In this document: in pieces, positions 1,347 to 27,219 of the stretch
Layout of the letters: each line of letters opens with the position of its first letter
Position numbering within the stretch: the stretch's first letter is position 1
NCBI GenBank assembly: GCA_964386655.1
Contig: CAYLSJ010000003.1
Location: forward strand, 1 to 27,445
Reading direction: 5' to 3'
Length of the DNA: 27,445 nucleotides
Source: an uncultured Candidatus Bathyarchaeia archaeon
GTDB lineage: Archaea; Thermoproteota; Bathyarchaeia; Bathyarchaeales; Bathyarchaeaceae
Notes under the pieces: generated by a model
Databases searched by the model: none
Told to the model about the DNA's origin: nothing
Seen by the model: only the letters and a program-made list of their open reading frames with translations
Position numbers and translations under genes: made by a program

Positions 1347-1501
1347 GTGAGATTTCGATATGTCAAGGCGCCCACACTCAAACGAAGCTTAACTCATCCA
1401 CATGATAAGACAGAATACCCTGTGTTGATGTGATGGAAGATAAGCAAGCGTCATATAGAGTTTCTTTAAATCATTAAGACTAAGCTAAGAAGGGTTTGAC
1501 T

Positions 1502-4581: not shown

Positions 4582-4715
4582 TTCCTCACCTCATGCGTGT
4601 TTACTTACAGCCTAGGCTTTAAAAGTCTTTATTTGGGTTCTTGCTCCGGGTAGCAAGAAAGATTTATCCACAAAAATCGTGGCTATATGATTGATTGTTA
4701 AAGGTGAGCTTTCAA
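4582..4715. promoter_or_regulatory. Divergent promoter region for the S9 and M14 peptidase genes
   Basis: Minus-strand AAAGACTTTTAAAG (about 4617-4630), plus-strand AAGAAAGATTTAT (4655-4667), and SD sites on both sides (GAGGTGAGG; AGGTGA at 4702-4707). Confidence 0.55.
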
Positions 4716-8147: not shown

Positions 8148-10202
8148 ATGAAGAAAGATACAGTCACGATCTTAATTGTTACATTGATTCTCATGGACAC
8201 CCTCACTTTTTTTGCCGACTTATCACCTTACGTATACGCTAATAGCACGAGTTTTCCAACGGTCGGTCCATCAGTCTTTGTGGACCCATCAAACATTACG
8301 AAATTTTTTGGCGAGACTTTTACTGTTGCTGTGAAAGTCTTCAACCTCACAGGGGTGTCTATCTCTCAACCTGGCTTGCCTGAGTTCAAGATTCCTTTGG
8401 GTAATCTATATGGCTTAAGCATTCAATTGTTTTGGGAGCCAACAATCATAGAGTATGTCAGCCATACTGTGACTATCCCTGTGGAAACCTATCCCGAGGG
8501 CATACTGCATGACCCGGTTATGGAAGTCATAAATGAGGTGAATCCCTCAGCTGGAACATACCGCATTGATTGTGCCTCTGTGGCTCCAGACGCTTCACCG
8601 TTCAATAATCCAGGCGCCAATAGCACAGTTTTCACCATGACTTTCAGAGTCATAGGGAAGGGAGCAACCCTTCTGCGCCTACCAATAGAAGAAATTGAAC
8701 TTGTTGACAACACAGGCAAACACCTTGGGTGGGACAGCACTGGCAGTCCACGTTATCTCTACAGTTTTGACGGTTACGTTAGTGTTGTAGGCGCGCCCAA
8801 CGCAGACTTTACCTATTGGCCCTCAGACGCAGCAGTTGTAAACAAGCAAGTGACCTTCAACGCATCAGCCAGCTATGACACTGCCCCTGGAGGTGCTATC
8901 ACTCTTTATATGTGGGATTTTGGAGATGGAACTAAACAGAACACAACCGATCCTATTATAACTCACAGCTTCACTCAGACTGGAGAATATTACGTGAAGC
9001 TCAGGGTTCTGGATAATGAAGTGCCTCCGTCAATAAGTGCGCCAAAGACGAAAGTCGTATATGTGGTAAACCGTCGTGATATAGCCATCACTAGCATTGC
9101 GGTTACGCCACCACAAATATTACAGAATTCAAATGTAACCATCGACGTCTCTGTTCGAAATGAAGGTGACGTGAAGGAAAACTCTACGCTCTCAGCATAT
9201 TACAACAAAACAGCAGTCGACACTACCACTGAATGGGTAGAGTTCGGCAGGAGAAGCGTGGTCAATCTCCAAAGCGGCGCCATTACCTCGCTGACCCTCA
9301 AATGGAACACAACTGGAGTAACCCCTGAAACTTACTATTTTATAAAGGTGAATGCAAGCAGAGTTCCGCAAGAAGAGGATGTCGACGACAACAATAGGGT
9401 AAGTACCCAGTCAGTGTTCGTCACTCTGGTGGAAACTCACGACATAGCGGTGGTTGCCATGGACATTGTAGCAAGTGAAGGTGAAGAAGAGTTCCCGGCT
9501 CCGTTTATCTTAGGTGAAACTGCATACATTGCCTTTGATGTAAAGGCAAATGGAACGGTTGATGAGACCTTCAATGCTACTCTTTCGGTTCTTGCCCCCA
9601 ACGGCACTTTATTGTTCACGAAAGACTGGACAAGTCAGAGCTTAGAGGTAGGCAAAACTAGTCCGCTGAATCATACTTTCAGCACAAGTGGTTATGTTTC
9701 GGGTAACTACGAGTTCAGCGTAAATGCTACAATCATCAAAAAAGACGACCGCCTAGGCAACAACTATGTGGAAAAAACGTTCATGATTATTAGGCCTCCT
9801 GTGATTGAAATCACTCCGTTGCCTAGCCCAATACATGCGGGCGAAACAATAGCCTTCGACGCCAGAGCCAGCAGTCACGCTGATGGTCAAATAACAAAGT
9901 ATGAATGGACGTTTTCGGAGGCGGGGACTGTCCGGTTCACCAAGTCTGGATCATTGGTTGACGCTACTTTTGATACTGCTGGTGATTGGGAATTTACATT
10001 GAAAATAACAGACAACTATGGTATCACATTCTCTGAACTTAGGGTGAGAACAAGCGCTTACAGGAGGAAGGAGAGAATTGTGGTTGAGGCCGGGGCATCA
10101 GAATTTCCTCTGTGGGCGGTTTATGGAGCAATGGCCATCATAGCGGTTGCGATTATAGCCTTATTGTTGTTCTTACGATTGAAGAGGTCTAAACCAAAGT
10201 AG
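8148..10202 (+). CDS. Membrane-anchored surface protein: signal - cohesin-like - PKD - CARDB x2 - PKD - TM
   Basis: Cohesin-like domain at about 8257-8785 (VFVDP..GETFTVAVKV..NLYGLSIQLFWEPTII..VFTMTFRV). PKD YMWDFGDG..ITHSF. CARDB DIAITSI..VRNEG and HDIAVV. C-terminal hydrophobic helix + KRSKPK. More than a dozen N-x-S/T sequons. Confidence 0.85.
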   Translation: MKKDTVTILIVTLILMDTLTFFADLSPYVYANSTSFPTVGPSVFVDPSNITKFFGETFTVAVKVFNLTGVSISQPGLPEFKIPLGNLYGLSIQLFWEPTIIEYVSHTVTIPVETYPEGILHDPVMEVINEVNPSAGTYRIDCASVAPDASPFNNPGANSTVFTMTFRVIGKGATLLRLPIEEIELVDNTGKHLGWDSTGSPRYLYSFDGYVSVVGAPNADFTYWPSDAAVVNKQVTFNASASYDTAPGGAITLYMWDFGDGTKQNTTDPIITHSFTQTGEYYVKLRVLDNEVPPSISAPKTKVVYVVNRRDIAITSIAVTPPQILQNSNVTIDVSVRNEGDVKENSTLSAYYNKTAVDTTTEWVEFGRRSVVNLQSGAITSLTLKWNTTGVTPETYYFIKVNASRVPQEEDVDDNNRVSTQSVFVTLVETHDIAVVAMDIVASEGEEEFPAPFILGETAYIAFDVKANGTVDETFNATLSVLAPNGTLLFTKDWTSQSLEVGKTSPLNHTFSTSGYVSGNYEFSVNATIIKKDDRLGNNYVEKTFMIIRPPVIEITPLPSPIHAGETIAFDARASSHADGQITKYEWTFSEAGTVRFTKSGSLVDATFDTAGDWEFTLKITDNYGITFSELRVRTSAYRRKERIVVEAGASEFPLWAVYGAMAIIAVAIIALLLFLRLKRSKPK

Positions 10203-11794: not shown

Positions 11795-13630
11795 ATGCCC
11801 AACAAGCGAGTTCATCTGGTTGCACTGACGCTGTTGGTGATTCTATTTTCTGTTATCATTGTATCCAGTGGCTTCACAATGGCTTGGTCACTTGACATGA
11901 GGTTAACATGGGATGAAGAATATGACGCTATGCCATCCGTAATCCAAACGACAGACGAAAAAATATGGGTTTTTTGGCATTCATACAGAACGAATGATGC
12001 GGAAATCTTCTATAAGGTTTATGACGGAAGTCAAGTGCATCCTTGGTCGCTGGAAATGAGGCTAACTAATAATCAAAGCGAGGACGGAACTCCAAGCGCC
12101 ATGCAAGCTGCAGATGGGAAAATGTGGGTTGTATGGATGAGTAATAGGGTTGGAAACTATGAGATCTTCTACAAAATTCGCGACGGCATATCATGGTCAC
12201 CGGATTTTAGACTCACCTTTGACGCTGCTGTTGACGAACTCCCTTCAATCATGCAAACAGAAGACGGCAAGATTTGGGTTTTCTGGGACTCTGGAAGAAA
12301 TGGAAACTATGATATATTTTACAAGACTACGCTTGACAGTGGACAAAACTGGTCTCCTGATTCTAGGCTTTCCATTTCGTCTACAAGTGCCGACGACTGG
12401 GACCCATCAGTTATGCAGGCTAAGGACAACAAAATTTGGCTTACTTGGGTAAGGAACGATCATGTTTACTACAGTGTTTTTGACGGATCTTTGTGGTCAT
12501 CTGCTTCGAAAGTAACTTCGGGCGGACTCGACAATTGGCATCCTTCCATTATGCAAACTCAAGACAGCAAAATCTGGGTTGTGTGGGATGCAGGGAAGGT
12601 CTCAGCAACGCAACCTGTTCCAACAGACATTTACTATAGTGTTTTTGATGGGTCGTGGTCTTCTCCTTTGCAGATAACAACAGACTCGGCTGAGGATTTC
12701 ATGCCATCAGCCATTCAGGATAATGGTGGAACTATCTGGGTAGTTTGGACTTCTGACCGAAGTCCTTTTACTGATTTGTACTACCGACTAAACTCCACAT
12801 CTCCCGCTCACGATGTCGAGATATTTAGTGTCATCCCGTCTAATCCATCGGTTGTTTTAGATGAAAGCGTTTCCATTGAAGTTGTGGCTAGAAATCTTGG
12901 AACGAACAACGAGACATTTGAGGTTCAACTCTACGCTAACTCAACTTTGATAGGATTTCAGATGGTTTGGGATCTGTTTCCCGGGCAACTTTACCCGATT
13001 GACTTTATTTGGGACACAATGGGCTTTGATCTGGGTAAATACATTATCAGCGCTAACGCTACAATTATCGCTGAAGAGACGAACACAGATAACAACTTTT
13101 TTACCGATGGGGTCGTCAGCGTTGATTGGCGTGATGTCGCAGTGACTGAGTTGACACCTTTTAAAACTGTTGTTGGGCAAGGTTTCACTCTCAATGTAAG
13201 AACGATTGTGGAAAATCAGGGCACTTGCACTGAAACCTTTGATCTAATAGTCTACTACGACGTAACTCCGTTTGGTAGGCAGACCCTTACCTTGGAACCT
13301 GGAAATTCCGCTACAGTTAGTTTTGCTTGGAACACCGCAAGTATAGCTAAGGGCAATTACTTCTTAAGTGCAGAAGCAACTGTAGTGCCTTTCGAAAAGG
13401 ATACAAATGACAACTTCGGCACCGACGGCATAGCCACTGTTACGATTCCAGGTGATGTCAATGGCGATAGAGTTGTTGACCTGCTGGACTTGAATGCCCT
13501 GTGCAGAGCTTACGGGTCTGCCCCGGGAAGTTCAAGGTGGGATTCAAACTGTGCTATCAACGACGACTCCATAATTGATGGTGTTGATCTTGCAATAGTC
13601 GGCAAAAACTTTGGAAAGACAGACTTGTGA
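11795..13630 (+). CDS. Secreted protein: 6-repeat BNR/Asp-box-like beta-propeller - CARDB x2 - dockerin
   Basis: Six repeats of about 50 aa (WS...RLT....D..PS.MQ..DGKIWV.W.S.R.GNY.IFYK), one Asp-box TTLDSGQNWS, CARDBs HDVEI.. and RDVAV.., and dockerin GDVNGDRVVDLLD..AYGS..W..AINDDSIIDGVD..KNFG at 13451-13630. Confidence 0.85.
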   Translation: MPNKRVHLVALTLLVILFSVIIVSSGFTMAWSLDMRLTWDEEYDAMPSVIQTTDEKIWVFWHSYRTNDAEIFYKVYDGSQVHPWSLEMRLTNNQSEDGTPSAMQAADGKMWVVWMSNRVGNYEIFYKIRDGISWSPDFRLTFDAAVDELPSIMQTEDGKIWVFWDSGRNGNYDIFYKTTLDSGQNWSPDSRLSISSTSADDWDPSVMQAKDNKIWLTWVRNDHVYYSVFDGSLWSSASKVTSGGLDNWHPSIMQTQDSKIWVVWDAGKVSATQPVPTDIYYSVFDGSWSSPLQITTDSAEDFMPSAIQDNGGTIWVVWTSDRSPFTDLYYRLNSTSPAHDVEIFSVIPSNPSVVLDESVSIEVVARNLGTNNETFEVQLYANSTLIGFQMVWDLFPGQLYPIDFIWDTMGFDLGKYIISANATIIAEETNTDNNFFTDGVVSVDWRDVAVTELTPFKTVVGQGFTLNVRTIVENQGTCTETFDLIVYYDVTPFGRQTLTLEPGNSATVSFAWNTASIAKGNYFLSAEATVVPFEKDTNDNFGTDGIATVTIPGDVNGDRVVDLLDLNALCRAYGSAPGSSRWDSNCAINDDSIIDGVDLAIVGKNFGKTDL

Positions 13631-13784: not shown

Positions 13785-16052
13785 ATGGAAAGGAAACGCC
13801 ATATGAAAGTTTTGGTTTTTACGTGGCTTCTCTTGGGCTTCTTCGTTTCAAGTTTTATAGATATTCGAACAGGCAATTCGCTCCCTGGAACAACAATTCT
13901 TGTGGCTCCTTCAGAAGTTACAAAAGCTGTTGGTGAAACCTTCGACATTAAGGTAAATATCTCTGATGTAACTAATCTTTATGGCTTGGACATTCAATTT
14001 TGGTGGGACTCAACCCTTTTAAAATACATTAGCAAGAATGTTAGGATTCCTAAAAGTACTTACTCTGACGGTGTTCTCTGGTCTCCATTCTTGAAATACA
14101 AGGACGTGGTCGATGCGGCAGCTGGTACGTACTGGCTTGCAGCATCCTCTTTCGGGGTCGCCAAGTCATTTAATGGTTCGGGAACAGCGTTCATCATGAC
14201 CTTCGAAGTCTTAAGAGAGGGCGCCTGTTATCTACACTTTACAAGTACTGGTCTAGGGGACAAGCCTGCTTCACCAGGTGAACCTTCAGAGCCAATTCCC
14301 CATGAACGCGTAGACGGTAAGTTCAGCACAGCTGGGGCTGGCTTGGCGCCTTTTGCAAGTTTTACTTTTGAGCCAGCGAAAGTCTTTGTGAACAAGACAA
14401 CCGTCACTTTCAACGCAACGGATAGTTATGATCTTGACCCGAGTGGAAACGTAACCCTCTATATGTGGAATTTTGGAGACGGAAATAAAACAAACACGCC
14501 GGATCCCATAATAACCCATGTTTACACTCTGGGCGGGATAGATTATTCAGCTGCCTTACAGGTTAAAGATAACAACAACAGCTTAAGCTTTCCCTACGTT
14601 AAATCCGTGCTTGTAATAGACTATTCCGATGTAAAAATAGATGAAGTCGAAGCTTCGCCACTCTCTGTGTCTAGAGGCTCAAATGTGACAATCGACGTCA
14701 CAGTCAGCAACATCGGCATCACAAGCCCACCCACCTTCAACGTCACAACCTACTACAACAAAACAGCAACAGAATGGATAAAAATCGATACACGACGTGT
14801 GGAAATTCTAACCAAAGGCACCACTACGACTTTGACATTCAATTGGACAACTCGAGTCACCCCCGACGCTTATTATAAGATAAAGGCAAACACAACCATA
14901 ATCGAAAACGACTATGACCTCAGCAACAACGCTGCGGAGAGCGACACATTAGTATATGTAATGCCAGGTTATCCTGTAGCCAGCTTCATCTATGCACCAG
15001 ATATTCCAGTACCCAGAGAACAAGTGACTTTTGATGCTCGAGCCAGCTCTGATCCAGATGGAAAAATTACCGAATACAGATGGAATTTCGGAGATGGAGC
15101 TAAAGAGAACACTGCCAACCCAATTGTAACTCATGCTTACGAGACTCCGGGCACCTACAATGTGACCTTAACAGTTGTTGACGATGATGTAGAACAACTA
15201 AAAGGGTCTTCCACTATGTGGGTGCAAGTATCCGTATACTATTCATTAGACGTCACAATTGATGTTGGATCAATACACTTCGCAGGTGAGGCAGCTGAAT
15301 TTTACATCAAGACATCAAGGTTAGGCAAACTCTTCAACGCCACGGAAATCACGGCAGTTCTTTATTATTCATACGGAACCAAATATTTGGACCTAAGTGA
15401 AAACATACGAATCATAAAAACTGGGGTCTACAGGTTACCGTACGTTCTGCCGTCAGACGCTTTAACGGGCACATACACACTTGTTGTCCAAGCAAGCTAT
15501 CTTAACCTTGAAGGAACCGCTCTCAAGAGCTTTCTGGTAAGCCAAACGTTAACTGGTTGGAACCCACTGCTGCTCAGCATCAACGGAACTGTGGCAACAA
15601 TAAAAACCGACGTAGGTCTGGTTCAGATGAAACTGGAAGACATCAACGCAACATTAATCGAGATTATTGTTGATAGCGAGGGCGAAATCCTTGCGAAGAT
15701 AGACTCGGCAGTTGGAACAATAATGGCAGAATTGAGCACAATTAACGCAACTCTAACCGATATAATTGTTGATAGCGAGGGCGAAATCCTTGCGGAGATA
15801 GACACTGCGCTGGGAACGGTAACGGCACAACTGGATACAATCAATTCTAGGGTCGTTGCCATTGACGGCAATGTTATCACTATAAAGACTGATCTTGGCA
15901 CAATCAAAACCACAACAAGCGATGTACAAACCTCTGTTGCAGGCGTCCAAACAACCGCCTCAACTTCTCTCTATGTGACTTCAGCGTTTTCGGCTATTGC
16001 AGCAGTGGTTGCAACCGTAGTTTTACTTCTATTGAGAAAAAAGCCTAAATAA
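13785..16052 (+). CDS. Membrane-anchored surface protein: signal - cohesin-like - PKD - CARDB - PKD - Ig-like - helical repeat stalk - TM
   Basis: Cohesin-like domain at about 13890-14330 (GETFDIKVNISDVTNLYGLDIQFWWDSTLL..FNGSGTAFIMTFEV), two PKD motifs W(N)FGDG, a 33-aa repeat stalk, and C-terminal TM + RKKPK. Confidence 0.85.
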   Translation: MERKRHMKVLVFTWLLLGFFVSSFIDIRTGNSLPGTTILVAPSEVTKAVGETFDIKVNISDVTNLYGLDIQFWWDSTLLKYISKNVRIPKSTYSDGVLWSPFLKYKDVVDAAAGTYWLAASSFGVAKSFNGSGTAFIMTFEVLREGACYLHFTSTGLGDKPASPGEPSEPIPHERVDGKFSTAGAGLAPFASFTFEPAKVFVNKTTVTFNATDSYDLDPSGNVTLYMWNFGDGNKTNTPDPIITHVYTLGGIDYSAALQVKDNNNSLSFPYVKSVLVIDYSDVKIDEVEASPLSVSRGSNVTIDVTVSNIGITSPPTFNVTTYYNKTATEWIKIDTRRVEILTKGTTTTLTFNWTTRVTPDAYYKIKANTTIIENDYDLSNNAAESDTLVYVMPGYPVASFIYAPDIPVPREQVTFDARASSDPDGKITEYRWNFGDGAKENTANPIVTHAYETPGTYNVTLTVVDDDVEQLKGSSTMWVQVSVYYSLDVTIDVGSIHFAGEAAEFYIKTSRLGKLFNATEITAVLYYSYGTKYLDLSENIRIIKTGVYRLPYVLPSDALTGTYTLVVQASYLNLEGTALKSFLVSQTLTGWNPLLLSINGTVATIKTDVGLVQMKLEDINATLIEIIVDSEGEILAKIDSAVGTIMAELSTINATLTDIIVDSEGEILAEIDTALGTVTAQLDTINSRVVAIDGNVITIKTDLGTIKTTTSDVQTSVAGVQTTASTSLYVTSAFSAIAAVVATVVLLLLRKKPK
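15642..15839 (+). repeat. Intragenic 99-bp (33-aa) tandem repeat x2
   Basis: The 30-mer ATTGTTGATAGCGAGGGCGAAATCCTTGCG is identical at 15666 and 15765. Units are INATL.(E/D)IIVDSEGEILA.ID.A.GT..A.L.T. Confidence 0.92.
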
Positions 16053-16302: not shown

Positions 16303-18720
16303 ATGAAGATAAAATGCTCGTCCATAGTGCTAATTACGACTTTGGCTCTTTTGACCACACTTGTATCAACGCCAGCACCAGCGAAAGCAGCAGGGACTGG
16401 TGGTCCACGGGCTCCTGGATTGAAGATTTACTTCTATGCTTCAACTGACGCGGCATTTGGCGCTATAGTGGCAGACCCGCCCGAGATTGACCTCTATGGT
16501 GGTATGCTCCTAAAGCCCCAATATGACCAAGCAATAACAGATTCCGACTTGACACTGTCGCAGTTCACAACTACTTTCACCATCACGAACCATGCATTCA
16601 TGAGTTCCGACGAAGATTGGGTGTTTGCATGGCTTGGAGAACGCAACCCGATAAGCGAAGTACACTTCAGAAAAGCCATGGAACATTTGGCAAACAGAGA
16701 TGCATGGATAGAGACCATCCTTGAAGGAATGGGAAAAAGAATCGATGTGCCAGTTGCAGCTCCATCTGTAGCTTGGATGAACGAGAGCATAATCGGCTCA
16801 AACTATCCATACCCATACAGTCACGCACTTGCTAAGGCTGAACTGCTTGCGGGCGGCTGGGAAGACTACGACAACAACGGAATAATCAACTATCCATTAG
16901 ACTGGCCTGGCAAAGCTGGAGTGATAGGCGTCAGAGACGAACCCGACATGGACGCACTTATATACTATGCCTACAACACACCTGCCACAAGATATGCCAT
17001 GGCTCTAGACCACGCAACCCAAATCCAAAACATAGACTGGGGAGGCGGTGTCAAAAAGAAGATTCCTGTAACCCTAACCGCTCAATCTTATGACTTCTTT
17101 GATACAGTCGTGTGGACCGACTACAAGTATCAAATTGCCACAGACGGTTGGAGCGTAGGAAGATACCCAACATATCTTAGAAGCTTCTTCGGCAGCGGAT
17201 ACTGGTGGCCTGGAGAGGGTGGAGTTAACGCCTACACCCCAGGATATCCAGAACTCGATGCAGCTCTTGACAATATGTTCTTCGCTCCAGACTTGGGTAC
17301 AGCCATTACTAATGCCAAACTCGCTCAAAGCATAATCATGGACAAATACGCCCTCTGGATCCCAATATGGTCAGGCGCGGGCTTCTACGCCTACAGAAAC
17401 TTGTTAGGCGTCGTGTCAACACCCAACACAGGACCATTCAACTACTTCACTGAAATGAACGCCATTCGCTCAGACGATGCAACACAGCCCATCAGAGTTG
17501 GCATAGTTCCAGCACCAATGGCACTCAACCCAATAACCTCAATGTGGGTGGTCGACGTAACCGTCATGCAGGAACCTTGGGACGGTGTCATTAACACCAA
17601 CCCGTACGACGTGCTGATAGACCAGCCAAACTTAGCTAGGGACTGGAGTGTCACAACCTGGAGTGGGGGTGGAGTTACTGGCACACTGGTCAAATATTGG
17701 CTCGACACCCGTTATAATTGGATCAAGCCAGGAACGGGACCAGACGCTGGCACAATAATTGGACCGCACGACACCAGTAACCAAGAATTCGTTGCTTGGT
17801 ATCACTTCCACACTCCATCTTGGGTTCGCGCTTCCTACCGAGACATACACCACATCAGAGTTATTGATAACGATGAGATTGAGTACTACTTCAACAAGAT
17901 CGGTGTCTTCTACGGCGCCAACTTCTATCCATGGGCAAGGGTGTTCTATGTACCACCAGGCGAGAACAAGGGAGGATGGAAGACATATCCACTTGTTCAA
18001 GATGGAGATCCTGGCACACCTGTGGGACCTGACGGCGTCACAGGACTTGACCCATCACAGAAAACACTCATCTCAGGCACGATATCTAACGCAACCCATG
18101 TGGCAACCCCACCGTATGGAACGGGAAGGGTGGCAGCGACAGCCCTACCATTCCGAGCGGCAGGCGCAGCTGTAGAAATACTATCAGTGACGGCTGGAGG
18201 CTCACCGCTAACAAAATACACTGACTACGAGATAGAATCGGGCTACGTCACAATTCACGCGTCAGTAGCGCTCGGTACACCAATTACCATCAGATACTGG
18301 GCTAGAGGCAGCTACGCTGGGGACCTACCAGGCGGCTTACCATTCGAAAAGACCCTGATGGGCACAGGCATCTGGTACATGACAGAATACATCCCAGGAA
18401 GCTGGGCAGTCTACAAACCTAACAGATTACACCCATGGACAACTCCACCACTAGGAGAAACCGACTGGTTGTGGATGTGGACAAGCTCAGTCAAACCAAG
18501 AACTGGTAACATGGAAATCACCATCGCTGACTTCGTCAAGGGCACAACAGCATACGCAAGCCACGCTAACAAGGTACCGAAGCCAACCTGGAACCCAAGT
18601 GCAGACCTAGCTAAAGTGGTTACTGGAAATGCACCTAACGGAATAGGTGAAATCACCGTAGAAGACATAAACACCATAGGCGGACCTGCCTACGATACAA
18701 CATTCTGGGAACTACCATAA
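16303..18720 (+). CDS. Family-5 (Dpp/Opp-type) ABC substrate-binding protein, apparently circularly permuted, with C-terminal dockerin-like tail
   Basis: Recognisable SBP5 segments: HFRKAMEHLANRD, YSHALAKAELLAGGW, IRVGIVPAPMALNP, QPNLARDW, MGTGIWY. It is the first gene of the dppBCDF cluster. Sec signal ends AKA|A. No lipobox or TM. Confidence 0.8.
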   Translation: MKIKCSSIVLITTLALLTTLVSTPAPAKAAGTGGPRAPGLKIYFYASTDAAFGAIVADPPEIDLYGGMLLKPQYDQAITDSDLTLSQFTTTFTITNHAFMSSDEDWVFAWLGERNPISEVHFRKAMEHLANRDAWIETILEGMGKRIDVPVAAPSVAWMNESIIGSNYPYPYSHALAKAELLAGGWEDYDNNGIINYPLDWPGKAGVIGVRDEPDMDALIYYAYNTPATRYAMALDHATQIQNIDWGGGVKKKIPVTLTAQSYDFFDTVVWTDYKYQIATDGWSVGRYPTYLRSFFGSGYWWPGEGGVNAYTPGYPELDAALDNMFFAPDLGTAITNAKLAQSIIMDKYALWIPIWSGAGFYAYRNLLGVVSTPNTGPFNYFTEMNAIRSDDATQPIRVGIVPAPMALNPITSMWVVDVTVMQEPWDGVINTNPYDVLIDQPNLARDWSVTTWSGGGVTGTLVKYWLDTRYNWIKPGTGPDAGTIIGPHDTSNQEFVAWYHFHTPSWVRASYRDIHHIRVIDNDEIEYYFNKIGVFYGANFYPWARVFYVPPGENKGGWKTYPLVQDGDPGTPVGPDGVTGLDPSQKTLISGTISNATHVATPPYGTGRVAATALPFRAAGAAVEILSVTAGGSPLTKYTDYEIESGYVTIHASVALGTPITIRYWARGSYAGDLPGGLPFEKTLMGTGIWYMTEYIPGSWAVYKPNRLHPWTTPPLGETDWLWMWTSSVKPRTGNMEITIADFVKGTTAYASHANKVPKPTWNPSADLAKVVTGNAPNGIGEITVEDINTIGGPAYDTTFWELP

Positions 18721-18799: not shown

Positions 18800-18851
18800 T
18801 CTTGTCTTAAAAGGCTTCACAGACCATCAAAGGAAAAGGTTGAGAGAGAAG

Positions 18852-19847
18852 ATGGGTCTTAGAGGCTATATTGCTAAAAGAGTTGTTTATAGTCTGATCC
18901 TCCTATGGGCCATTATGACCCTAAACTTCATAATTTTCGTAATGATGCCTGGAGACCCCATCTCCAGATACATCAAGGCACAAGAAGGAAGAGAAACATC
19001 TAAGGAAGACCTAGAGGTACTTAAAAAAGTATACGGCGTAGATGTGCCCTTACAAGAAAGGTACTTTCTGTACATTAAAAACATGCTAACATGGAATTTC
19101 GGAAGAACCCGATACATAGAAAACCCAATAGCCCTAGAAATCACACGCAGATTAGGAAACACCTTGCTGCTGACGAGCACAGCCGCATTTTTCTCCATAA
19201 GCGTTGGTACATTACTCGGTGTACTCATTGCGTCAAGAAGAGGAACTAAAACAGACACAGGAACAGTCACTGGCGCATTGGTCCTTTCCAGTTTACCCGT
19301 GTTCTGGATAGGCTGGTTAATCCTTTTCGTTTTTGCAATACAGCTGGGCTGGTTTCCAGTTGGTGGAACTTACCCGAAATGGTGGGCGGGCAATTGGCCA
19401 ACCGACCCTCTGGTGTACCTTTCAGGGCGAATCCTGACCTTAGTCTTGCCAGTACTCACTCTCTTCATCTTAACTTTTGATGGATGGATGCTTTTAACGA
19501 GAGCATGCGTACTTGAAACCATCACTGAAGACTTTGTCGTGACTGCTAAAGCAAAGGGATTGAGACAGAGATCGGTCTTGCTAAAACATGTACTAAAAAC
19601 TGCATCACTTCCTTTAGTTACTGCAATAGCCCTAACTATTTCTGGGCTTTGGGGAGGCGCCATAATAACTGAAACATTGTACAGTTACGATGGACTGGGC
19701 AGATGGGTATATCAAGCAATAACACAACAAGATATTCCAGTTTTGTACGTCATTTTCTACATAGACGCACTCATGATAATCATTGCAAACTTCGCAGTAG
19801 ACTTGGTTTATGGGTTCATAGATCCACGAATAAAGGTTGGTAAATAG
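18852..19847 (+). CDS. dppB: Peptide ABC transporter permease, DppB/OppB-type (start likely ATG 18852)
   Basis: YIAKRVV..MPGDP N-terminus, RLGNTLLL, and EAA-like loop EDFVVTAKAKGL..VLLKHVLK. Confidence 0.92.
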   Translation: MGLRGYIAKRVVYSLILLWAIMTLNFIIFVMMPGDPISRYIKAQEGRETSKEDLEVLKKVYGVDVPLQERYFLYIKNMLTWNFGRTRYIENPIALEITRRLGNTLLLTSTAAFFSISVGTLLGVLIASRRGTKTDTGTVTGALVLSSLPVFWIGWLILFVFAIQLGWFPVGGTYPKWWAGNWPTDPLVYLSGRILTLVLPVLTLFILTFDGWMLLTRACVLETITEDFVVTAKAKGLRQRSVLLKHVLKTASLPLVTAIALTISGLWGGAIITETLYSYDGLGRWVYQAITQQDIPVLYVIFYIDALMIIIANFAVDLVYGFIDPRIKVGK

Positions 19848-19850
19848 CTG

Positions 19851-21461
19851 ATGTCAACATACAAAGAACGAGTCGTTTTCACACTGAAAGGGCTCAAGCA
19901 CTTTTGGACAGAGTATAAACAAACCAAGCGAGGAGTAGTAGGATTCGCAATCATTTGCATTTACATCGCACTTGGCATTCTAGGACCTATTCTGTCGCCA
20001 CACGACGCTTTAAACCCATCATGGCCCGGATATTACCCTGCAGGCAGAGCTCTCATTGCAGACTACTTAACTTTGCCAGGCTGGTACAGATACTTGCCTG
20101 GAGGAGGCGGTTTGTCAGAAAACACAAAACTAATACAAGATCACGAATTCTCAACGGAGCAAGCTATGAATGCATGGAAATGGGAAACCAACGCTCCCAA
20201 CTTTGCTAACCTGAAATATAATCCTGTGAAGGGAGACCGTAACGAAGGAGCCATGGAAGTAACCTACCTACGTGAAACTGGAGCTACTCCCTTGAACAAA
20301 ACCTACGTGCGAATAACCCATGATTTCAGATGGCCGTACAGAAGTCATCCGAGGCAATTTTGGCTACATGCATCCACCCTTGTCAACGGCACAGTTTCCT
20401 TACCTAACTATGTTGAAATAGAATTCATGTTTCACAGAACACAAGCTCCTCCACCTTTAGCTGATTACGAATACCCACTTGTGTCCACTGAAGATTCTTT
20501 AGTTGTCTATACCTATCCACTCATCACAGAGACCATCAGCAGTCCGAGCATAGCTTGGTACCATCAATGGATAAGGTCGAAAACAGAGAAAATCAACCTT
20601 GACCCAAAGTATTATCTTCAACCAGAAACAGTCATATTCCCAGCCCCAGGCAATTACACCTACGAAATCAAAGTAAGTTTTCAAGACAGTGGAGGTCTCC
20701 AAAAAAACATAACAGTATACTTAGATAACCTAGATGTGCTGCTTTACGGAGAGACATACGGCATCCTTGGCACAGATCGGAACTTGGGTTATCCACGAGA
20801 CATAGCCACATCATTAATGTACGGGGCAAGAATCTCCATCGCTGTAGGCTTAATAGCCGCCTCAATATCCGTGTCCCTCGGTCTACTTTTGGGCTTAATT
20901 GCAGGATACATTGGCGGTGTCACAGATGAAGCTGTAATGAGAATAGCAGATCTTCTCATAGCTCTTCCAGGCTTGCCACTAATAATAATTTTGACTGTGG
21001 TGCTCTCAAGCTCTATATGGAATGTTATAGTGATCTTATCCTTCTTAGGATGGATGGGATTCTCACGCAATGTAAGATCAATGACACTATCCCTGCGTGA
21101 AAGAGCCTTTATTGAAGCTGCCAAAGCTGCTGGAGCCGGCAGATTCCACATAATATTTAAGCATATTCTTCCTAACGTGTTTGCCCTAGTCTATCTTGCG
21201 CTTGCAGTGTCGGTTCCGGGAATCATTGTTGCAGAAGCTACGTTGAGTTGGCTTGGATTATTTGATCCATATCAGATATCTTGGGGAAGAATGCTCGGTG
21301 AATTTTCCAACTCTGGAGTTGCGGTTTCGAAAGGATTCGCTGAATACTGGTTCTGGGTAATGCCACCGGGCTTAGCAATATCCATGTTAGCCATTGCATT
21401 CATACTAACAGGCTATTCTCTGGATGAAATACTAAACCCAAAACTTAGAGCCAGACGCTGA
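19851..21461 (+). CDS. dppC: Peptide ABC transporter permease, DppC/OppC-type, with large extracytoplasmic insertion
   Basis: GILGTD..RDI..LMYGARISI, MRIADLLIALP, EAA loop FIEAAKAAGA..IIFKHILPN, WWVMPPG-like end. An insert of about 240 aa follows TM1. Confidence 0.92.
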   Translation: MSTYKERVVFTLKGLKHFWTEYKQTKRGVVGFAIICIYIALGILGPILSPHDALNPSWPGYYPAGRALIADYLTLPGWYRYLPGGGGLSENTKLIQDHEFSTEQAMNAWKWETNAPNFANLKYNPVKGDRNEGAMEVTYLRETGATPLNKTYVRITHDFRWPYRSHPRQFWLHASTLVNGTVSLPNYVEIEFMFHRTQAPPPLADYEYPLVSTEDSLVVYTYPLITETISSPSIAWYHQWIRSKTEKINLDPKYYLQPETVIFPAPGNYTYEIKVSFQDSGGLQKNITVYLDNLDVLLYGETYGILGTDRNLGYPRDIATSLMYGARISIAVGLIAASISVSLGLLLGLIAGYIGGVTDEAVMRIADLLIALPGLPLIIILTVVLSSSIWNVIVILSFLGWMGFSRNVRSMTLSLRERAFIEAAKAAGAGRFHIIFKHILPNVFALVYLALAVSVPGIIVAEATLSWLGLFDPYQISWGRMLGEFSNSGVAVSKGFAEYWFWVMPPGLAISMLAIAFILTGYSLDEILNPKLRARR

Positions 21462-21638: not shown

Positions 21639-22607
21639 ATGGCACTGCTTGAGGTCAACGATCTAGTAACTCATTATATTACGCTTAGGGGCTCAGTAAA
21701 AGCAGTTGACAAGATCAGTTTCCAAATAGAGAAAGGAGAAGCAATGGGATTAGTTGGAGAATCAGGTTGCGGCAAAACCACTGTTGCCTTGTCTCTCCTT
21801 AAAATTCTGCCTTCAGGTGGAAGAATCATCAATGGCAAAATTCTCTTCAAAGGCGTAGACATAGTCCAACTTGAAGAAGAAGAAATGCGAAAGAGCATCA
21901 GGTGGAAAGGAATATCACTTATATTCCAAGGAGCCATGAACGCGCTCACTCCCGTTTACAAAATTGGATATCAAATTATCGAAGCGATTAGAATACACGA
22001 ACCCGATGTGGACAAGAAAGAGGCCACAGAGAGAGCGAAAAAACTTCTCGAAATGGTCGGAGTCGAACCTAAAAGAATTGACAACTACCCCCACGAATTT
22101 AGTGGCGGAATGAAACAACGCGCAATGATCGCTATGGCCCTAGCATGCCATCCTGATCTTTTGATTGCAGATGAACCCGCAACAGCCTTAGACGTAGTTG
22201 TTCAAGCGCAGGTTCTTGAACTTATCAAAGCGCTTAAGGACAAGTTGCACTTATCAATGATGTTGATAACACACGACTTGTCAATTGTTGCTGAGACGTG
22301 TGAAAAGATTGCCGTTATGTATGCTGGAAAAATCGCGGAATACGGAGATATAATCACTATTTTTAAGGAACCTTTGCATCCGTATGCTCAAGGTTTACTG
22401 GAAGTATTCCCAAATATTAAGGCGCAGAGAAGTCGTGCTATGTCCATACCAGGTTCTCCACCAGATTTATTATCACCTCCCAGTGGCTGTCGATTTCATC
22501 CGCGTTGCAAGTACAGAATGGAAATTTGCAGTAAGAAGGAGCCAGCAGTCACTGAAGTCAAAAGAGGGCTACATTATGCCGCCTGCCACCTCTTATACAA
22601 AGCCTGA
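21639..22607 (+). CDS. dppD: Peptide ABC transporter ATPase, DppD/OppD-type
   Basis: Walker [10 protein letters not shown], signature FSGGMKQR, Walker B LLIADEP, HPY, and C-terminal GCRFHPRC Cys cluster. Confidence 0.95.
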
Positions 22608-22620
22608 TGAAGGTATAAAA

Positions 22621-23616
22621 ATGCAAGAAACAGTTGTAAAAGCCGTTGAATTAACAAAATGGTTTCCCGTGAGAATGGGCTTTTTTGGAAGCTTGTTTTT
22701 CAAACAAGAGCAGTATGTCCGAGCAGTAGATGGAATAGACCTAGAAATCAAAAGAGGCGAGATTTTTGGACTTGCGGGAGAAAGCGGTAGCGGAAAAACG
22801 ACTACTGGAAGGCTGCTTGTCAAACTTATTGAACCTACTCAAGGGAAAATTTTTTTCCATGGGCAAGATATAACGGCTCTCTCAGAAAGCTCGTTTAAAC
22901 CTCTACGTCGAAAAATCCAGATAGTATTCCAAGACCCTTACGAGTCACTTAACCCTAGAATGACTGTCTTCAACATTATCGCTGAACCATTGCTACTGCA
23001 ACAGATTGCTAGCGGGGCTCAAGTTGAAGAGAGAGTTCATAAAGTTCTGGAAGAGGTGGAATTAACTCCCGCTCGGGAATTTCTCTACCGATACCCTCAC
23101 GAGCTCAGTGGAGGCCAAAGGCAACGTGTAGCGACAGCAAGAGCCTTAGCTTTGAACCCAGAGTTTATTGTTGCCGATGAACCTGTTTCCATGTTAGATG
23201 TTTCTGTGAGAGCAGAAGTTCTAAACCTGATGTTTCATTTAATGGAAAAATATAATGTGTCATTCTTGTACATCACCCACGACTTGGCATTAGCCCGTCA
23301 CATCTGCAATTCGATAGCCATTATGTATTTGGGCAGAATTATGGAAAAAGCTCCTACAGAAAAGATTGTGTACGAACCCCTGCATCCCTATACAAAAGTG
23401 CTTATCGCAGCGGTTCCAGTTCCTGATCCTACGGTAAGGCGTGTAAGAGCCATGGTTAAAGGGGAAATCCCAAGTTCAGTGAACCCCCCGTCTGGATGCA
23501 GGTTCCACACTAGGTGCCCAGAGTTCATTGGAGATATTTGCAAAACAAAAGAGCCGGTGTTAACCGATGTTGGCAGTGGACAATGTGTTGCATGCCACTT
23601 GTACTCTAAGCGATGA
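22621..23616 (+). CDS. dppF: Peptide ABC transporter ATPase, DppF/OppF-type (start ATG 22621, not 22384)
   Basis: Walker A GESGSGKTT, LSGGQRQR, IVADEP, HPY, GCRFHTRC. The ATG lies 13 nt after the dppD stop. Confidence 0.95.
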   Translation: MQETVVKAVELTKWFPVRMGFFGSLFFKQEQYVRAVDGIDLEIKRGEIFGLAGESGSGKTTTGRLLVKLIEPTQGKIFFHGQDITALSESSFKPLRRKIQIVFQDPYESLNPRMTVFNIIAEPLLLQQIASGAQVEERVHKVLEEVELTPAREFLYRYPHELSGGQRQRVATARALALNPEFIVADEPVSMLDVSVRAEVLNLMFHLMEKYNVSFLYITHDLALARHICNSIAIMYLGRIMEKAPTEKIVYEPLHPYTKVLIAAVPVPDPTVRRVRAMVKGEIPSSVNPPSGCRFHTRCPEFIGDICKTKEPVLTDVGSGQCVACHLYSKR

Positions 23617-23858: not shown

Positions 23859-24965
23859 ATGTTTCGGAAACTTACCTTAATCTGCGTCTTGTTACTGGCA
23901 GTAACACTATTGTTTAACGTAGGAGTCCAGGTGTGTATAAGCCAAGTCCCGAGAAATATCATGGTTTCTTTCGACGCTAAACTTGACGTATTCAGCCCTC
24001 AGCCTCCGCTGGACATATCTGTATGGTTCGAAGCTGAGGTTCTCTACGACGGTGAGCCAACGCATCCGACGCTGCCCGCAAACACAGTGACGTTGCAACT
24101 GCTAGTCAACGGTTCACTCGTGAATTCCTACCTGTATCCATACTCGTTACCAGTTGGTTCAAAATTCACTTACACTTACAAATGGGTTCCCACGGCGGAG
24201 GGTAAGTATAATCTTACGGCCTACGTGCCTCCACTGGCTTGGGAGACAATACGGGATGATAACGTTGAATGGGACGTTGTGCCAATATTCGAGCCGATTG
24301 TGAACCCTCGTGTTTATGTTGATCCGCCAAGCATTACGGTATACAAGGGCGAAATCTTCACAGCTAGAGTAAATATTGCCAATCTCTCTGACCTTTACGT
24401 TCGCGACCAGACCATGTACGATATTCCTCTTGGAAATTTCTACGGCGCTGATTTCTACTTCTATTACGACTCTTCAAAATTAGCTGTTCTTGATTTCACT
24501 ATGCCTATCTGGTGGATTTTTGCGGACAATTCAACCGCTGGAACCTTCTATGTCCTGGGAACATCGTATCCTCCTGAGCCACCATTGAACAACTATCCTT
24601 ATCCTGGAAGCACCACTGTTTTAGAGATAACGTTCAGGGCAACCGCTACAGGAATTGTTTCTCTAAGCCTTCCCATCGGAAACATGATGCTTGTAGATAA
24701 AGACGGAAGATACATCGGAAGAGACGCAATATGGGAACCAACCTATCTGTCTGCTACCTATGGATCTGTGAGGATTAAGATAGTAGGCGATGTGAACGGC
24801 GATGGCATCGTAGATTTCCGTGATCTGTATGCACTCGGTAGAGCTTATGGAAGTGTGTCAGGCTCAGGGGACAACTGGAACAGAGAATGCGACTTTAACA
24901 GAGACAACAAAGTGGATTATCTTGATCTATCAGCCTTACTTAAGAACTACGGCAAAACAGAGTAA
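23859..24965 (+). CDS. Secreted protein: signal - CARDB/Ig-like - cohesin-like - dockerin
   Basis: Cohesin-like domain at about 24303-24780 (VYVDPPSIT..GEIFTARVNIANL..IPLGNFYGADFYFYYDSSKL..VLEITFRA). Dockerin from 24786 has two intact Ca loops, DVNGDGIVDFRD and DFNRDNKVDYLD. Confidence 0.85.
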   Translation: MFRKLTLICVLLLAVTLLFNVGVQVCISQVPRNIMVSFDAKLDVFSPQPPLDISVWFEAEVLYDGEPTHPTLPANTVTLQLLVNGSLVNSYLYPYSLPVGSKFTYTYKWVPTAEGKYNLTAYVPPLAWETIRDDNVEWDVVPIFEPIVNPRVYVDPPSITVYKGEIFTARVNIANLSDLYVRDQTMYDIPLGNFYGADFYFYYDSSKLAVLDFTMPIWWIFADNSTAGTFYVLGTSYPPEPPLNNYPYPGSTTVLEITFRATATGIVSLSLPIGNMMLVDKDGRYIGRDAIWEPTYLSATYGSVRIKIVGDVNGDGIVDFRDLYALGRAYGSVSGSGDNWNRECDFNRDNKVDYLDLSALLKNYGKTE

Positions 24966-25239: not shown

Positions 25240-27120
25240 CTATGGTTTCATGGCAAGCGCTTTGTAAACGAACGCCATTATGTCTGAATATTCCTTTATC
25301 TTTGTTGTTGGCGTTGCACCCGAGTGTCCACTTTTTGTTTCAACTCTCAGAAGTGGAGATGTTCCTTTCTCTTCAAGTTTTGCAGTGAACTTGAAGGCGT
25401 GTGCTGGATGAACGCGGTCATCGTGTGCCCCTGTATACAGCATCGTTTTGGGATAGCCTCTTCTAGTGATGTTGTGATACGGCGAGTACTTCAGGAGAAA
25501 CTCTCTGTCCTTTGGATTTTCCGGGTCACCATATTCCGACATCCAAGCTTTTCCGATGTGAAGTTTATGATACCTGAGCATGTCGAGCACGGGATATCCA
25601 ATCAGTGCACCGTCGAGTAGCTCAGGATGCTGGGTCAGGACTGCTCCGATTAGCAGACCGCCGTTGCTAACACCGAAACCCACAGTCTTCGACCCTTTAT
25701 TCCTGTAATATTCAAGGACCGCCATGAAATCGTCGAACACATTCTGTTTCTTCTCTCGCATTCCTTTTCTGTGCCATGCCTCACCATATTCTGTGCCTCC
25801 CCTGAGATTCGCTACTGCAAAGGTTCCACCGTTCTCTAAGAATGGAATGACATAAGAAAAGTATCTAGGCGTCAGAGAGAAAGCAAACCCACCGTACCCC
25901 CAGACTAAAACTCGGCTTGCTGTTCTGCCCTTCTTCCCAACGTTAAACACATGAATTCTGGTCGAGTCCTTCGATTTAACCCACATGTCTTTCACTTCGA
26001 AGGCACCGCGAATCTCCCTCGAGTCTACAGTTGTTAACGCATCTCTTTCCAAGCAGTAGATCCTGTAGGGGATAAGGAAAGACTCATAAATGAATACACA
26101 TTTTTCACCATCGGAATCAAGAGACCCAATAGTTCCAGCGGGCTCAGGCTTCAGTTCGCTGTGTTTTCTGCCACTTAGATCATAAGTTCTTAAGATTGAA
26201 GCTGCGTCAACTAGGTATGTGGCAGCTATTTTTTCATTTGCAATAACTGCTTCCTGCAGCGGATAAGGCTGTTCGCCAACGATTTCGTCGATCTCGCCGT
26301 TGTTGCTTAGGCCCAGTATTCGCCCCATTCCCTTCTTGTCAAATGACGTCGCATAATACTTGCCATGAACGTAGTCAATTGGCCATGTCATGAAGTCTCC
26401 TTTGCCATAAACCAGACTCCAGCCTTCGGGCTTCTTGATGTGCCCTGCGTAGATGTCGCTTCTTGTCCAACCATAAGCGACCATCAGCAGTGCTCTTGAG
26501 CTTTCTCGGCTCTTCTTAAGCGAAATGAAATAGGATGTTGGAAGACCTCGACCAAAAACTAGCTCATCTGTGCCGTTCTCTCTTAGATGAATCCTCATTG
26601 CAGGGGAAGCAACGCCGTCAGGAGTCTTGTCTTTCTGATAGAATCTTCCGTAGAGATATTTCTCTTCCTCAAGCCATACCAAGTCGCCGAACATGCCTTT
26701 CATTTCATCCAGAGTCTCTTTAGACTCTGTTTTCATTATCTTCAAGATTCCCTCATCTGAACCGCCAAGAGAATAGGTGAAAGCGAATAGATCTCCTTCT
26801 TCTGAAGCATAGAACTGCTGTATTACTGCGTCTTTGCCCAGTTCTGCGGAGTTCACTAATTCCGTGATGTCGCCCTTCTGGTGCAATAAGTTGAGCTTGA
26901 AGTTCCTGCTGTCTCGTAGAAGTACGAAGTGTCCACTAGGTCTGGTCTTCGCCATCAAAACGTAGGGAATCGCATAGCACCTCCTGATTCTGCTCTCCAG
27001 CTTCTTAGAAATCGGTGAAAGGAGCTTCCGTGTGGCATCATTCCTCTTGGAAAACCATTTCACCACTTTCGGGTCTTCAAGATTCTCCAACCACAGGTAA
27101 GGGTCATGGTCTTCAGTCAT
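25240..27120 (-). CDS. Prolyl oligopeptidase (S9A); start likely ATG 27120
   Basis: N-terminal DPYLWLE, nucleophile GVSNGGLL, Asp in HDDRVHP, His in SGHSG, NLRGGTEYGEAWH. No signal peptide. GGGGTTGA SD-like site upstream. Confidence 0.95.
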   Translation of the reverse strand: MTEDHDPYLWLENLEDPKVVKWFSKRNDATRKLLSPISKKLESRIRRCYAIPYVLMAKTRPSGHFVLLRDSRNFKLNLLHQKGDITELVNSAELGKDAVIQQFYASEEGDLFAFTYSLGGSDEGILKIMKTESKETLDEMKGMFGDLVWLEEEKYLYGRFYQKDKTPDGVASPAMRIHLRENGTDELVFGRGLPTSYFISLKKSRESSRALLMVAYGWTRSDIYAGHIKKPEGWSLVYGKGDFMTWPIDYVHGKYYATSFDKKGMGRILGLSNNGEIDEIVGEQPYPLQEAVIANEKIAATYLVDAASILRTYDLSGRKHSELKPEPAGTIGSLDSDGEKCVFIYESFLIPYRIYCLERDALTTVDSREIRGAFEVKDMWVKSKDSTRIHVFNVGKKGRTASRVLVWGYGGFAFSLTPRYFSYVIPFLENGGTFAVANLRGGTEYGEAWHRKGMREKKQNVFDDFMAVLEYYRNKGSKTVGFGVSNGGLLIGAVLTQHPELLDGALIGYPVLDMLRYHKLHIGKAWMSEYGDPENPKDREFLLKYSPYHNITRRGYPKTMLYTGAHDDRVHPAHAFKFTAKLEEKGTSPLLRVETKSGHSGATPTTKIKEYSDIMAFVYKALAMKP

Positions 27121-27219
27121 ACAGGTCAACCCCAAATCTAGGAAGCCTGAGCCTTTAAGAGTTGTTCAGGAACGTTTGCGACGCATAGTACACTTTTGGA
27201 GAGCACAAACGCGTTGTAA

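Follow-up and report, generated by a model that had tools for sequence, protein, structure and literature searches.

A family 5 substrate-binding protein with its halves in swapped order and a dockerin-like tail in Bathyarchaeia

Results

Organization of the gene at 16303-18720

The stretch of DNA analysed here, in the following referred to as the window, comprises 27,445 nucleotides of an uncultured Candidatus Bathyarchaeia archaeon (contig CAYLSJ010000003.1, assembly GCA_964386655.1) and carries at 16303-18720, on the forward strand, an open reading frame (ORF) of 805 amino acids (aa) that encodes a substrate-binding protein (SBP). As OppBCDF-type genes lie downstream, the ORF represents the binding-protein gene of an Opp/Dpp-type ATP-binding cassette (ABC) importer. 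All its parts are given on the forward strand. The start codon and the N-terminal signal peptide (MKIKCSSIVLITTLALLTTLVSTPAPAKA followed by AGTG) occupy 16303..16401, as judged from the sequence and the N-termini of homologues. The first half of the SBP (aa 34-392, 16402..17478) corresponds to residues 236-535 of the DppA precursor according to Pfam, hhalign and a profile match to the PDB, and the second half (aa 393-712, 17479..18438) corresponds, from aa 397 on and by hhalign, to DppA precursor residues 29-235. Between them lies a seam at 17467..17490, also placed by hhalign, at which the old C-terminus (...MNAIRS) runs into the old N-terminus (PIRVGI...). Alignment to DppA places a beta-rich insertion within the second half (aa ~540-676, 17920..18330, approximate bounds). 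A connector recognized by its conservation in the family, TTPPLGETDWLWMW, links the core to a dockerin-like module (18439..18489), and profile-profile comparison identifies the remainder (18490..18720, including the stop codon) as a degenerate dockerin homologue (aa ~730-802).

The hydrophobic, signal-peptide-like segment spans aa 1-30 and ends ...PAPAKA before AG, suggesting that the signal peptide is cleaved after AKA. Hydrophobic N-termini of similar length precede the GPR motif in the homologues, and 45 residues or fewer stand before the core in 88 of the 107 permuted members with an intact start. An initial annotation of the window had proposed, from the order of its motifs, that the SBP is circularly permuted relative to OppA/DppA. 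The quoted motifs are all present in the order claimed, with positions deviating by no more than 6 nucleotides (nt): GPRAPGLKIYF at aa 34-44 (nt 16402), FRKAMEHLANRD at aa 122-133, AKAELLAGGW at aa 177-186, ELDAAL at aa 317-322, AQSII at aa 341-345, WIPIW at aa 352-356, IRVGIVPAPMALNP at aa 397-410 (nt 17491, previously placed at 17485, aa 395), QPNLARDW at aa 441-448 and MGTGIWYMTEYIPGSWAVYKPNRLHPW at aa 686-712 (nt 18358-18438, previously 18361). This pattern far exceeds chance expectation, and the two halves of the SBP are in swapped order compared to the characterised OppA/DppA relatives.

Profile comparisons of the two halves

The Pfam profile PF00496 (SBP_bac_5) matched the window SBP with 41.9 bits (cut-off 32.4; E 9.3e-11), but the match comprised only aa 84-296, aligned to positions 192-361 of the 368 positions of the profile. 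As no more than about 50 mature residues precede this match, the first half of the family 5 domain cannot occupy its usual place. Searches with NCBIfam and of the PDB with the single sequence returned a partial SBP match like that of Pfam. When the second half was submitted to Pfam alone, PF00496 was not detected, and the sole match was a weak one to CBM_X2 (aa 620-654, E 0.02-0.05, below the cut-off). Pfam detects only the first half of the window SBP, and its result on this protein alone was therefore regarded as insufficient to prove a permutation. In a swapped construct, in which aa 393-712 were followed by aa 34-392, the PF00496 match extended across the artificial junction (profile positions 110-361; 49.4 versus 41.9 bits), a modest gain, as Pfam does not recognize so diverged a second half.

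Profile-profile comparison by hhalign was carried out against an aligned canonical set consisting of Escherichia coli DppA, OppA, NikA, GsiB, SapA and MppA. In native order, columns 2-357 aligned to residues 237-535 of the DppA precursor (293 columns, score 136.8, E 1.4e-16), whereas in swapped order columns 3-677 aligned to DppA 29-535 (486 columns, score 165.3, E 2.5e-20), thereby taking in the whole of mature DppA in a colinear fashion. Thus, exchanging the halves yields the full-length colinear alignment to DppA/OppA/NikA/GsiB/SapA/MppA that the proposed permutation predicts; in the native order, an alignment of this kind to DppA/OppA, which would speak for canonical topology, was not seen, the match being confined to the 293 columns. 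Individually, the first half scored 134.6 against the C-terminal part of the canonical set and 10.5 against its N-terminal part. Conversely, the second half scored 41.4 against the N-terminal part (E 3.8e-5, DppA 29-234) and 11.0 against the C-terminal part. Controls with the second half gave 16.1 when the profile was reversed and 14.1 +/- 2.7, with a maximum of 22.9, in 30 column-shuffles. Both cross-controls and shuffles hence remain at noise level, so that pseudo-symmetry of the two lobes does not explain the pattern, and it was rejected as a mimic of the permutation on these grounds.

When the family profile was compared to all PDB sequences, a strong stretch aligned profile positions 43-326 to Bacillus subtilis AppA 224-477, and weak stretches appeared in the order predicted by the permutation (profile 417-483 to chain residues 30-96, 452-539 to 68-150 and 640-673 to 183-214). 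The second-half profile had a sole PDB match, the family 5 SBP 4oet_A (residues 78-147 and 152-184, E 0.0025); the first half of the family matches the same protein from residue 194 on. Relatives of the window SBP gave a clearer picture. In P0121, two PF00496 stretches were found, the upstream half matching profile positions 146-356 (E 1.6e-19) and the downstream half positions 1-141 (E 5e-24). The downstream halves of P0096, P0046, P0101, P0103 and P0106, scanned separately from the upstream halves, matched PF00496 from ~2 to 141 (E 5.9e-6 to 5.5e-29), while the second half of P0077, scanned in the same way, had no PF00496 match. In these relatives, the cut falls at profile position ~141-146. 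Accordingly, the two partial PF00496 hits in reversed order that had been anticipated occur in less diverged relatives such as P0121, but not in the window SBP itself, in which only the first half is hit.

Position of the cut, seam and insertions

The first half contains the domain I strand that comes after the GTGP...YW hairpin, the complete domain III and the C-terminal segment leading back into domain I. The second half comprises the domain I strand of the canonical N-terminus and domain II and ends with the GTGxxY...W hairpin, now the last element of the core. The cut is located between residues 235 and 236 of the DppA precursor (mature 207/208), and the halves are exactly complementary with neither loss nor duplication: the new core C-terminus ...GTGIWYMTEYIPGSWAVYKPNRLHPW aligns with DppA ...GTGPFQLQQYQKDSRIRYKAFDGYW, and GPRAPGLKIYFYAS, the new mature N-terminus, with the DppA residues that come next, GTKPQIDTLVFSIT. 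At the seam, about 5 residues (DDATQ) bridge the old termini and lead into PIRVGIVPAPMALNP, such that ...NAIRS aligns to the last residues of DppA (to 535) and QPIRVG to DppA 29, the first mature residue. Across 116 members the seam differs in length by no more than -2 to +8 residues. The published domain boundaries of DppA place the cut within the second segment of domain I, with about 55 residues to go until the chain first crosses over to domain III; given this position within domain I, the two inter-lobe hinge crossovers would be unchanged.

The beta-rich insertion of about 130 aa resides between domain II and the GTG hairpin and takes the place of DppA 177-205. It is variable within the family, and members such as P0096, P0046 and P0101 are devoid of profile positions ~161-244. 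Its first part was found in the window protein alone. Two further insertions were observed in single members, one of ~80 residues in the region of the beta-rich insert (P0009) and an additional one of ~250 residues in the domain III part (P0012, alignment columns ~535-790). The connector or tail begins 0-3 residues after the core in nearly all members. The connector has the family consensus ETPPLGEIDWxWxW, in which P715, G718, E719, D721 and W722 show little or no variation among 14 sequences.

Predicted structure

A first AlphaFold2 (AF2) model, built from 14 sequences, had a predicted local distance difference test (pLDDT) score of 56.5 (30-60 in the second half) and was too poor to interpret. 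With 119 family sequences, modeling of aa 34-805 resulted in a mean pLDDT of 90.5 and a predicted template modeling score (pTM) of 0.91. The pLDDT was 92-97 across the seam, and the tail was likewise modeled with high confidence. Within the beta-rich insertion, the beta strands at aa ~620-680 reached 88-98, and the region at aa ~545-610, in the poorly modeled first part, remained below 70. All 50 of the 50 matches listed by Foldseek against the PDB were cluster C SBPs (probability 1.0, E down to 1.9e-14), and the window SBP thus has, as far as model and search indicate, the bilobed three-domain fold of the solved cluster C structures. Of the approximately 500 residues of the targets, however, 302-362 columns (mostly 320-360) were aligned, with target-normalised TM-scores of 0.41-0.51. 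This ceiling roughly equals the first half in size, as expected when a sequential aligner is applied to a permutant; a relative of canonical topology modeled this confidently should align over nearly its full length. The ceiling was the same with the poor model from 14 sequences.

Distribution and conservation of the family

Of the first 13 homologues, one was a near-identical copy (98%) and the others were 27-45% identical. Most were colinear with the window SBP over more than 90% of its length, and one is labelled Candidatus Bathyarchaeota. They share the layout of a signal peptide, GPRxxGLxIxFY..., the C-terminal motif of family 5 joined directly to its N-terminal motif, GTGPYY...ANR...LETPPLGEIDW, and then the tail. 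An exhaustive hmmsearch of 1.84 billion cluster representatives retrieved 426 proteins at E <= 1e-30. Using half-profiles, we classified 157 sequences, namely the 13 homologues and 144 new representatives at 50% identity among the matches listed. The permuted order (first-half type, second-half type and, if present, the tail) was found in 157 of 157, and the canonical order in none. Apparent 'A-A' or 'B-B' cases proved to be single halves split by insertions, and cases with a single half look like fragments. The sequences analysed are at 21-50% identity.

Some members deviate in their domain composition. P0095 (797 aa) has no signal peptide and consists of the end of a first half, a second half and a tail, followed only 5 residues later by the start of a new first half; a tandem fusion, read-through into an adjacent paralogue and a chimera created during assembly could each account for this sequence. 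N-terminal fusions of permuted SBPs were observed to an M14 carboxypeptidase (P0039), an M10 peptidase-like domain (P0006), a PQQ-type beta-propeller (P0073) and LamG plus FG-GAP (P0121), and in P0121 the tail is followed, in addition, by a cohesin and a CARDB domain.

A scan for loci, performed on one genome per GTDB species with two short peptide patterns and hence not exhaustive, identified at least 15 loci, all of them in metagenome-assembled genomes (MAGs) of Candidatus Bathyarchaeota/Bathyarchaeia. Two MAGs have two copies each. Homologues of oppB, oppC, oppD and oppF are located directly downstream in 11 of the 15 loci (E 1e-105 to 1e-229). The conserved order together with these loci rules out that the window ORF is a misassembly or a dead chimera.

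The C-terminal tail

The Pfam profile Dockerin_1 (PF00404) gave no hit in the 93-residue tail of the window SBP or in 13 tails of the family at E values of up to 10. Among the window ORFs, the best non-self matches of the tail profile were the Pfam dockerins of the genes at 23859-24965 and 11795-13630, at the positions of the dockerins. Against 177,635 PDB sequences, the top three matches were the dockerin modules 4wi0_B, 4u3s_B and 5k39_B (E 0.02-0.3). By hhalign, the tail matched canonical Bathyarchaeial dockerins with a probability of 98% (E 1.6e-13, 60 of 62 columns), in a reference of eight sequences, six of which had been chosen through weak hits of the tail profile itself, all with a plain GDxNGD, and two of which are the Pfam-confirmed modules of the window. 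The tail is built of two helix-bearing repeats, and the two helices were predicted with pLDDT values mostly of 94-97. In calcium loop 1, GDVNGD is changed to KPRTGN; loop 2 retains D768 and D788 but harbors an insertion. The tail of the window SBP therefore does not have both D-x-[ND]-x-D...D calcium loops. On the evidence of these sequence comparisons, the tail is homologous to dockerins over both repeats. The dockerin that the initial annotation had placed at the new C-terminus is thus backed by the profile-profile comparison and the top PDB matches, but Pfam does not recognize it and its loops are degenerate. An alternative derivation of the tail segment KPRxGYxxIxIYD, as a relic of a duplicated strand GPRxxGLxIxFY, was discarded at an hhalign probability of 0.1%.

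Among 142 members with both halves, 99 have the degenerate module only, 11 have the degenerate module with a canonical dockerin downstream of it, and 21 have a canonical-type dockerin in its stead. A dockerin-type module accordingly follows the permuted core in 131 of 142 (92%). Of the 11 members without a detected dockerin, 4 are truncated, and at least one other appears dockerin-like by eye. Permutation and dockerin do co-occur, as had been suggested for survey, but all 131 cases belong to one lineage and thus effectively represent a single evolutionary event. A database search with the tail profile yielded only 10 short C-terminal fragments of the permuted family, within the limits set by the word index of that search.

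Genes surrounding the SBP gene

Four transporter genes follow on the forward strand. An OppB/DppB-type permease, the predicted partner of the SBP, is encoded at 18840-19847 (PF00528, E 6.6e-33; PF19300), and an OppC/DppC-type permease of 536 aa at 19851-21461 (OppC_N at aa 16-52; BPD_transp_1, PF00528, at aa 344-533). They are followed by an OppD-type ATPase (21639-22607; PF00005 and PF08352, oligo_HPY) and an OppF-type ATPase (22384-23616; PF00005 at aa 116-268, and PF08352). OppC carries an insertion of ~290 aa without a Pfam match between its first transmembrane segment and the permease core, and the OppC ORFs are similarly long (1.5-1.9 kb) in 11 related Bathyarchaeia operons; the insertion possibly forms an extracellular domain that evolved together with the unusual binding protein. 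As listed, the oppF ORF overlaps oppD by ~220 nt and its ABC domain begins only at aa 116; the true start of oppF is probably located further downstream, near the end of oppD.

Upstream, at 13785-16052 on the forward strand, a secreted protein with a cohesin-like/PKD/CARDB/PKD arrangement is encoded, which ends in a hydrophobic segment and RKKPK according to Pfam and its sequence. The PKD and CARDB matches are strong; that to cohesin (aa 44-83, E 8.1e-5) reaches 23.3 bits and narrowly misses the cut-off of 24.1. PKD/cohesin-type surface proteins related to this one occur near the permuted SBP gene in 7 of the 15 loci, matches that possibly stem from the PKD/CARDB parts. From its sequence features, the protein might serve as a membrane-anchored scaffold to which proteins with dockerins attach. 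Before its anchor lies an almost exact internal repeat, IIVDSEGEILA[KE]ID[ST]A[VL]GT...TIN, and the gene at 8148-10202 has a similar C-terminal anchor (...RLKRSKPK).

Two genes for secreted proteins with a canonical C-terminal type I dockerin (GDVNGD..., by Pfam) flank the transporter operon, one on each side: that at 11795-13630, which also encodes CARDB domains, and that at 23859-24965, both on the forward strand. The cluster of surface-protein and transporter genes is in turn flanked by peptidase genes, two of the S9 prolyl-oligopeptidase family (2794-4581, reverse strand; 4695-6425, forward strand) and one for an M14 zinc carboxypeptidase (25240-27135, reverse strand). Two major facilitator superfamily (MFS) transporter genes are located at 125-1255 (reverse strand) and 1496-2713 (forward strand). 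Judged by its genes, the window fits a peptide-scavenging locus.

Discussion

The window SBP very probably represents a genuine case of natural circular permutation in the cluster C (PF00496) fold. Its chain would run from the signal peptide through a domain I strand and domain III back to domain I, then through the old N-terminal strand into domain II with its insertion, and end with the GTG hairpin, the conserved PLGExDW connector and the dockerin-derived module. Once exported, the SBP is expected to fold into a bilobed Venus-flytrap, to take up its ligand in the cleft and to dock on OppBC, with transport powered by OppDF; as the inter-lobe crossovers are unchanged, binding by the flytrap mechanism should persist. 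The ligand is most likely an oligopeptide, to judge by the genomic context with its flanking peptidases and by the fusions to M14 and M10 domains in relatives. Archaea have no outer membrane to hold a soluble binding protein, and it is for this reason that we propose the C-terminal dockerin-type module to retain the SBP at the cell surface, where it would probably hold on to a membrane-anchored cohesin protein such as that encoded at 13785-16052. A single origin of the permutation is most likely, in an ancestor within the Bathyarchaeia in which a tandem duplication or fusion was followed by truncation.

Several points weigh against this reading. The second half of the window SBP is too diverged for detection by Pfam, and its assignment derives from profile-profile E values of ~1e-4 to 1e-5 and from homology to relatives in which Pfam clearly detects this half. 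The structural support for the permutation consists in the alignment-length ceiling and is indirect. The Asp that anchors the amino group of the ligand in DppA (precursor D436) falls into an alignment gap; with this residue not conserved there, the mode of binding may differ and the ligand is uncertain. With degenerate loops in a tail to which Pfam is silent, and a canonical dockerin added in 11 relatives, binding to cohesin may have been lost. Finally, the N-terminal segment could serve as an uncleaved anchor, which would make tethering through a dockerin unnecessary.

That the ORF is a misassembly or a dead fusion, in which a deletion joined the 3' part of one tandem SBP gene to the 5' part of the next, has next to no probability. 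Deletion and fusion are a textbook route to permutation whose product would initially look alike, and P0095 does show an ...A-B-T-A arrangement, yet the same order with the same tight seam recurs in all 157 sequences at 21-50% identity, and the permuted gene is found in at least 15 Bathyarchaeia loci, where it usually heads an intact oppBCDF operon. Moreover, the halves complement each other exactly, the signal peptide immediately precedes the new N-terminus, and AF2 returns one compact fold with the pTM of 0.91. Equally remote is an illusory permutation, in which the pseudo-symmetry of the lobes would let a canonical SBP with a diverged N-terminal lobe and an unrelated C-terminal extension appear permuted. 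The lobes of SBPs, being alpha/beta, do resemble each other, and the second half of the window SBP reaches a modest score (41 in hhalign, with Pfam silent). Such a reading is at odds with the cross-control scores (134.6 versus 10.5 and 41.4 versus 11.0), with the second halves of relatives that match PF00496 positions 1-141 at E values down to 5.5e-29, and with the mere ~33 residues, taken up by the signal peptide, before the equivalent of DppA 236, which leave no space for an N-terminal lobe.

The two other alternatives accept the permutation as real and concern tail and ligand. The tail might be a structural cap that packs against the SBP and stabilises the new termini, with the protein being retained by its uncleaved N-terminal segment or, in part of the relatives, by a second, canonical dockerin; we consider this a serious possibility, although not the favored one. 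Loss of calcium loop 1 (KPRTGN) and the silence of Pfam would suit a cap, as would a degenerate tail found on permuted SBPs only (in the database search limited by its word index), the 11 members that add a canonical dockerin past the degenerate one, and the confident modeling of the tail together with the core. On the other hand, 21 members have a canonical-type dockerin at the same position, which suggests that cohesin binding is ancestral, and proteins with cohesin domains and membrane anchors are encoded beside the gene. Somewhat less probable, and on balance unlikely, is a transporter for oligosaccharides or other non-peptide ligands, as are many Opp-type binders of archaea and Thermotoga. 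The top structural matches include binders of chitin oligosaccharides and mannosides besides those of peptides and nickel, the amino-anchoring Asp of DppA is not conserved, and some relatives are fused to LamG or a beta-propeller; but peptides are favored by the three peptidase genes around the operon, by relatives that carry M14 and M10 peptidase domains and by the known role of Bathyarchaeia as degraders of detrital protein.

Compared to cluster C SBPs such as DppA, OppA, NikA, AppA (1xoc) and the Vibrio chitin-oligosaccharide binder (1zu0), the permuted protein of the window is alike in sequence homology, fold and its OppBCDF partners. It differs in lacking their canonical segment order (domain Ia, II, Ib, III, Ic) and in having a beta-rich insertion of ~130 aa of its own and the C-terminal dockerin-derived module. 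With dockerins (PF00404; 4wi0, 4u3s, 5k39), the tail shares the duplicated, helix-bearing repeat of ~22 residues and the location at the C-terminus of a secreted protein, whereas its calcium-loop residues are largely lost, it is not recognized by Pfam, and it is preceded by the family-specific connector PLGEIDWxWxW. Neither a permuted cluster C SBP nor an archaeal SBP bearing a dockerin was found described in the open-access full-text literature.

The only natural permuted SBP that we found in the open-access literature is Tp0684 (TpMglB-2) of Treponema pallidum, a cluster B sugar binder for which the label 'Type Ic / Cluster Bc' has been proposed and whose authors speculated that its topology is an adaptation to anchoring (PMC4990184). 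It resembles the window SBP in its natural permutation, with ligand binding kept in TpMglB-2, in the bilobed fold, in the operon context and, if the window SBP is tethered as proposed, in occurring in organisms with tethered SBPs. In contrast, TpMglB-2 is MglB-like and belongs to cluster B, is found in spirochaetes and Gram-positives, has an N-terminal lipid anchor and bears no sequence relation to the window protein; our sequence and structure searches returned no MglB-like or cluster B match, all matches being to cluster C. By analogy, the permuted family might be regarded as the cluster C counterpart and be termed 'Cluster Cc'.

It might be speculated that the permutation is an adaptation to tethering, with the new C-terminus, as the initial annotation suggested, on the hinge-side surface. 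More specifically, it could be functionally coupled to cohesin-dockerin scaffolding, in that dockerin-bearing peptidases and the SBP would assemble on membrane-anchored cohesin scaffolds into a peptide-harvesting complex at the cell surface and the new chain ends, at the GTG hairpin of domain I, would allow the tethered SBP to open, close and dock on OppBC, including the ~290-aa and presumably extracellular insertion of OppC. We regard such a coupling as improbable at present. If it were true, the chain topology would be an evolved answer to the geometry of tethering, in parallel to the independent case in Treponema.

SBPs are a textbook system of fold evolution and a main scaffold of biosensors, and their division into clusters A-G and types I-III rests on chain topology. 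The present finding is relevant to protein evolution, SBP engineering and archaeal cell surfaces. It concerns an archaeal family that is large and conserved, comprising about 400 clusters at 50% identity, and that present annotation treats as plain 'family 5 SBP' with a Pfam hit over part of the profile. It indicates that the chain of the OppA/DppA fold can be opened at a specific new position, a property that may be of use for the engineering of split or inserted sensors, and it provides a second, independent case in which to ask whether permutation accompanies tethering. For the organisms themselves, it bears on how peptides may be captured at the surface of Bathyarchaeia, abundant uncultured archaea of sediments.

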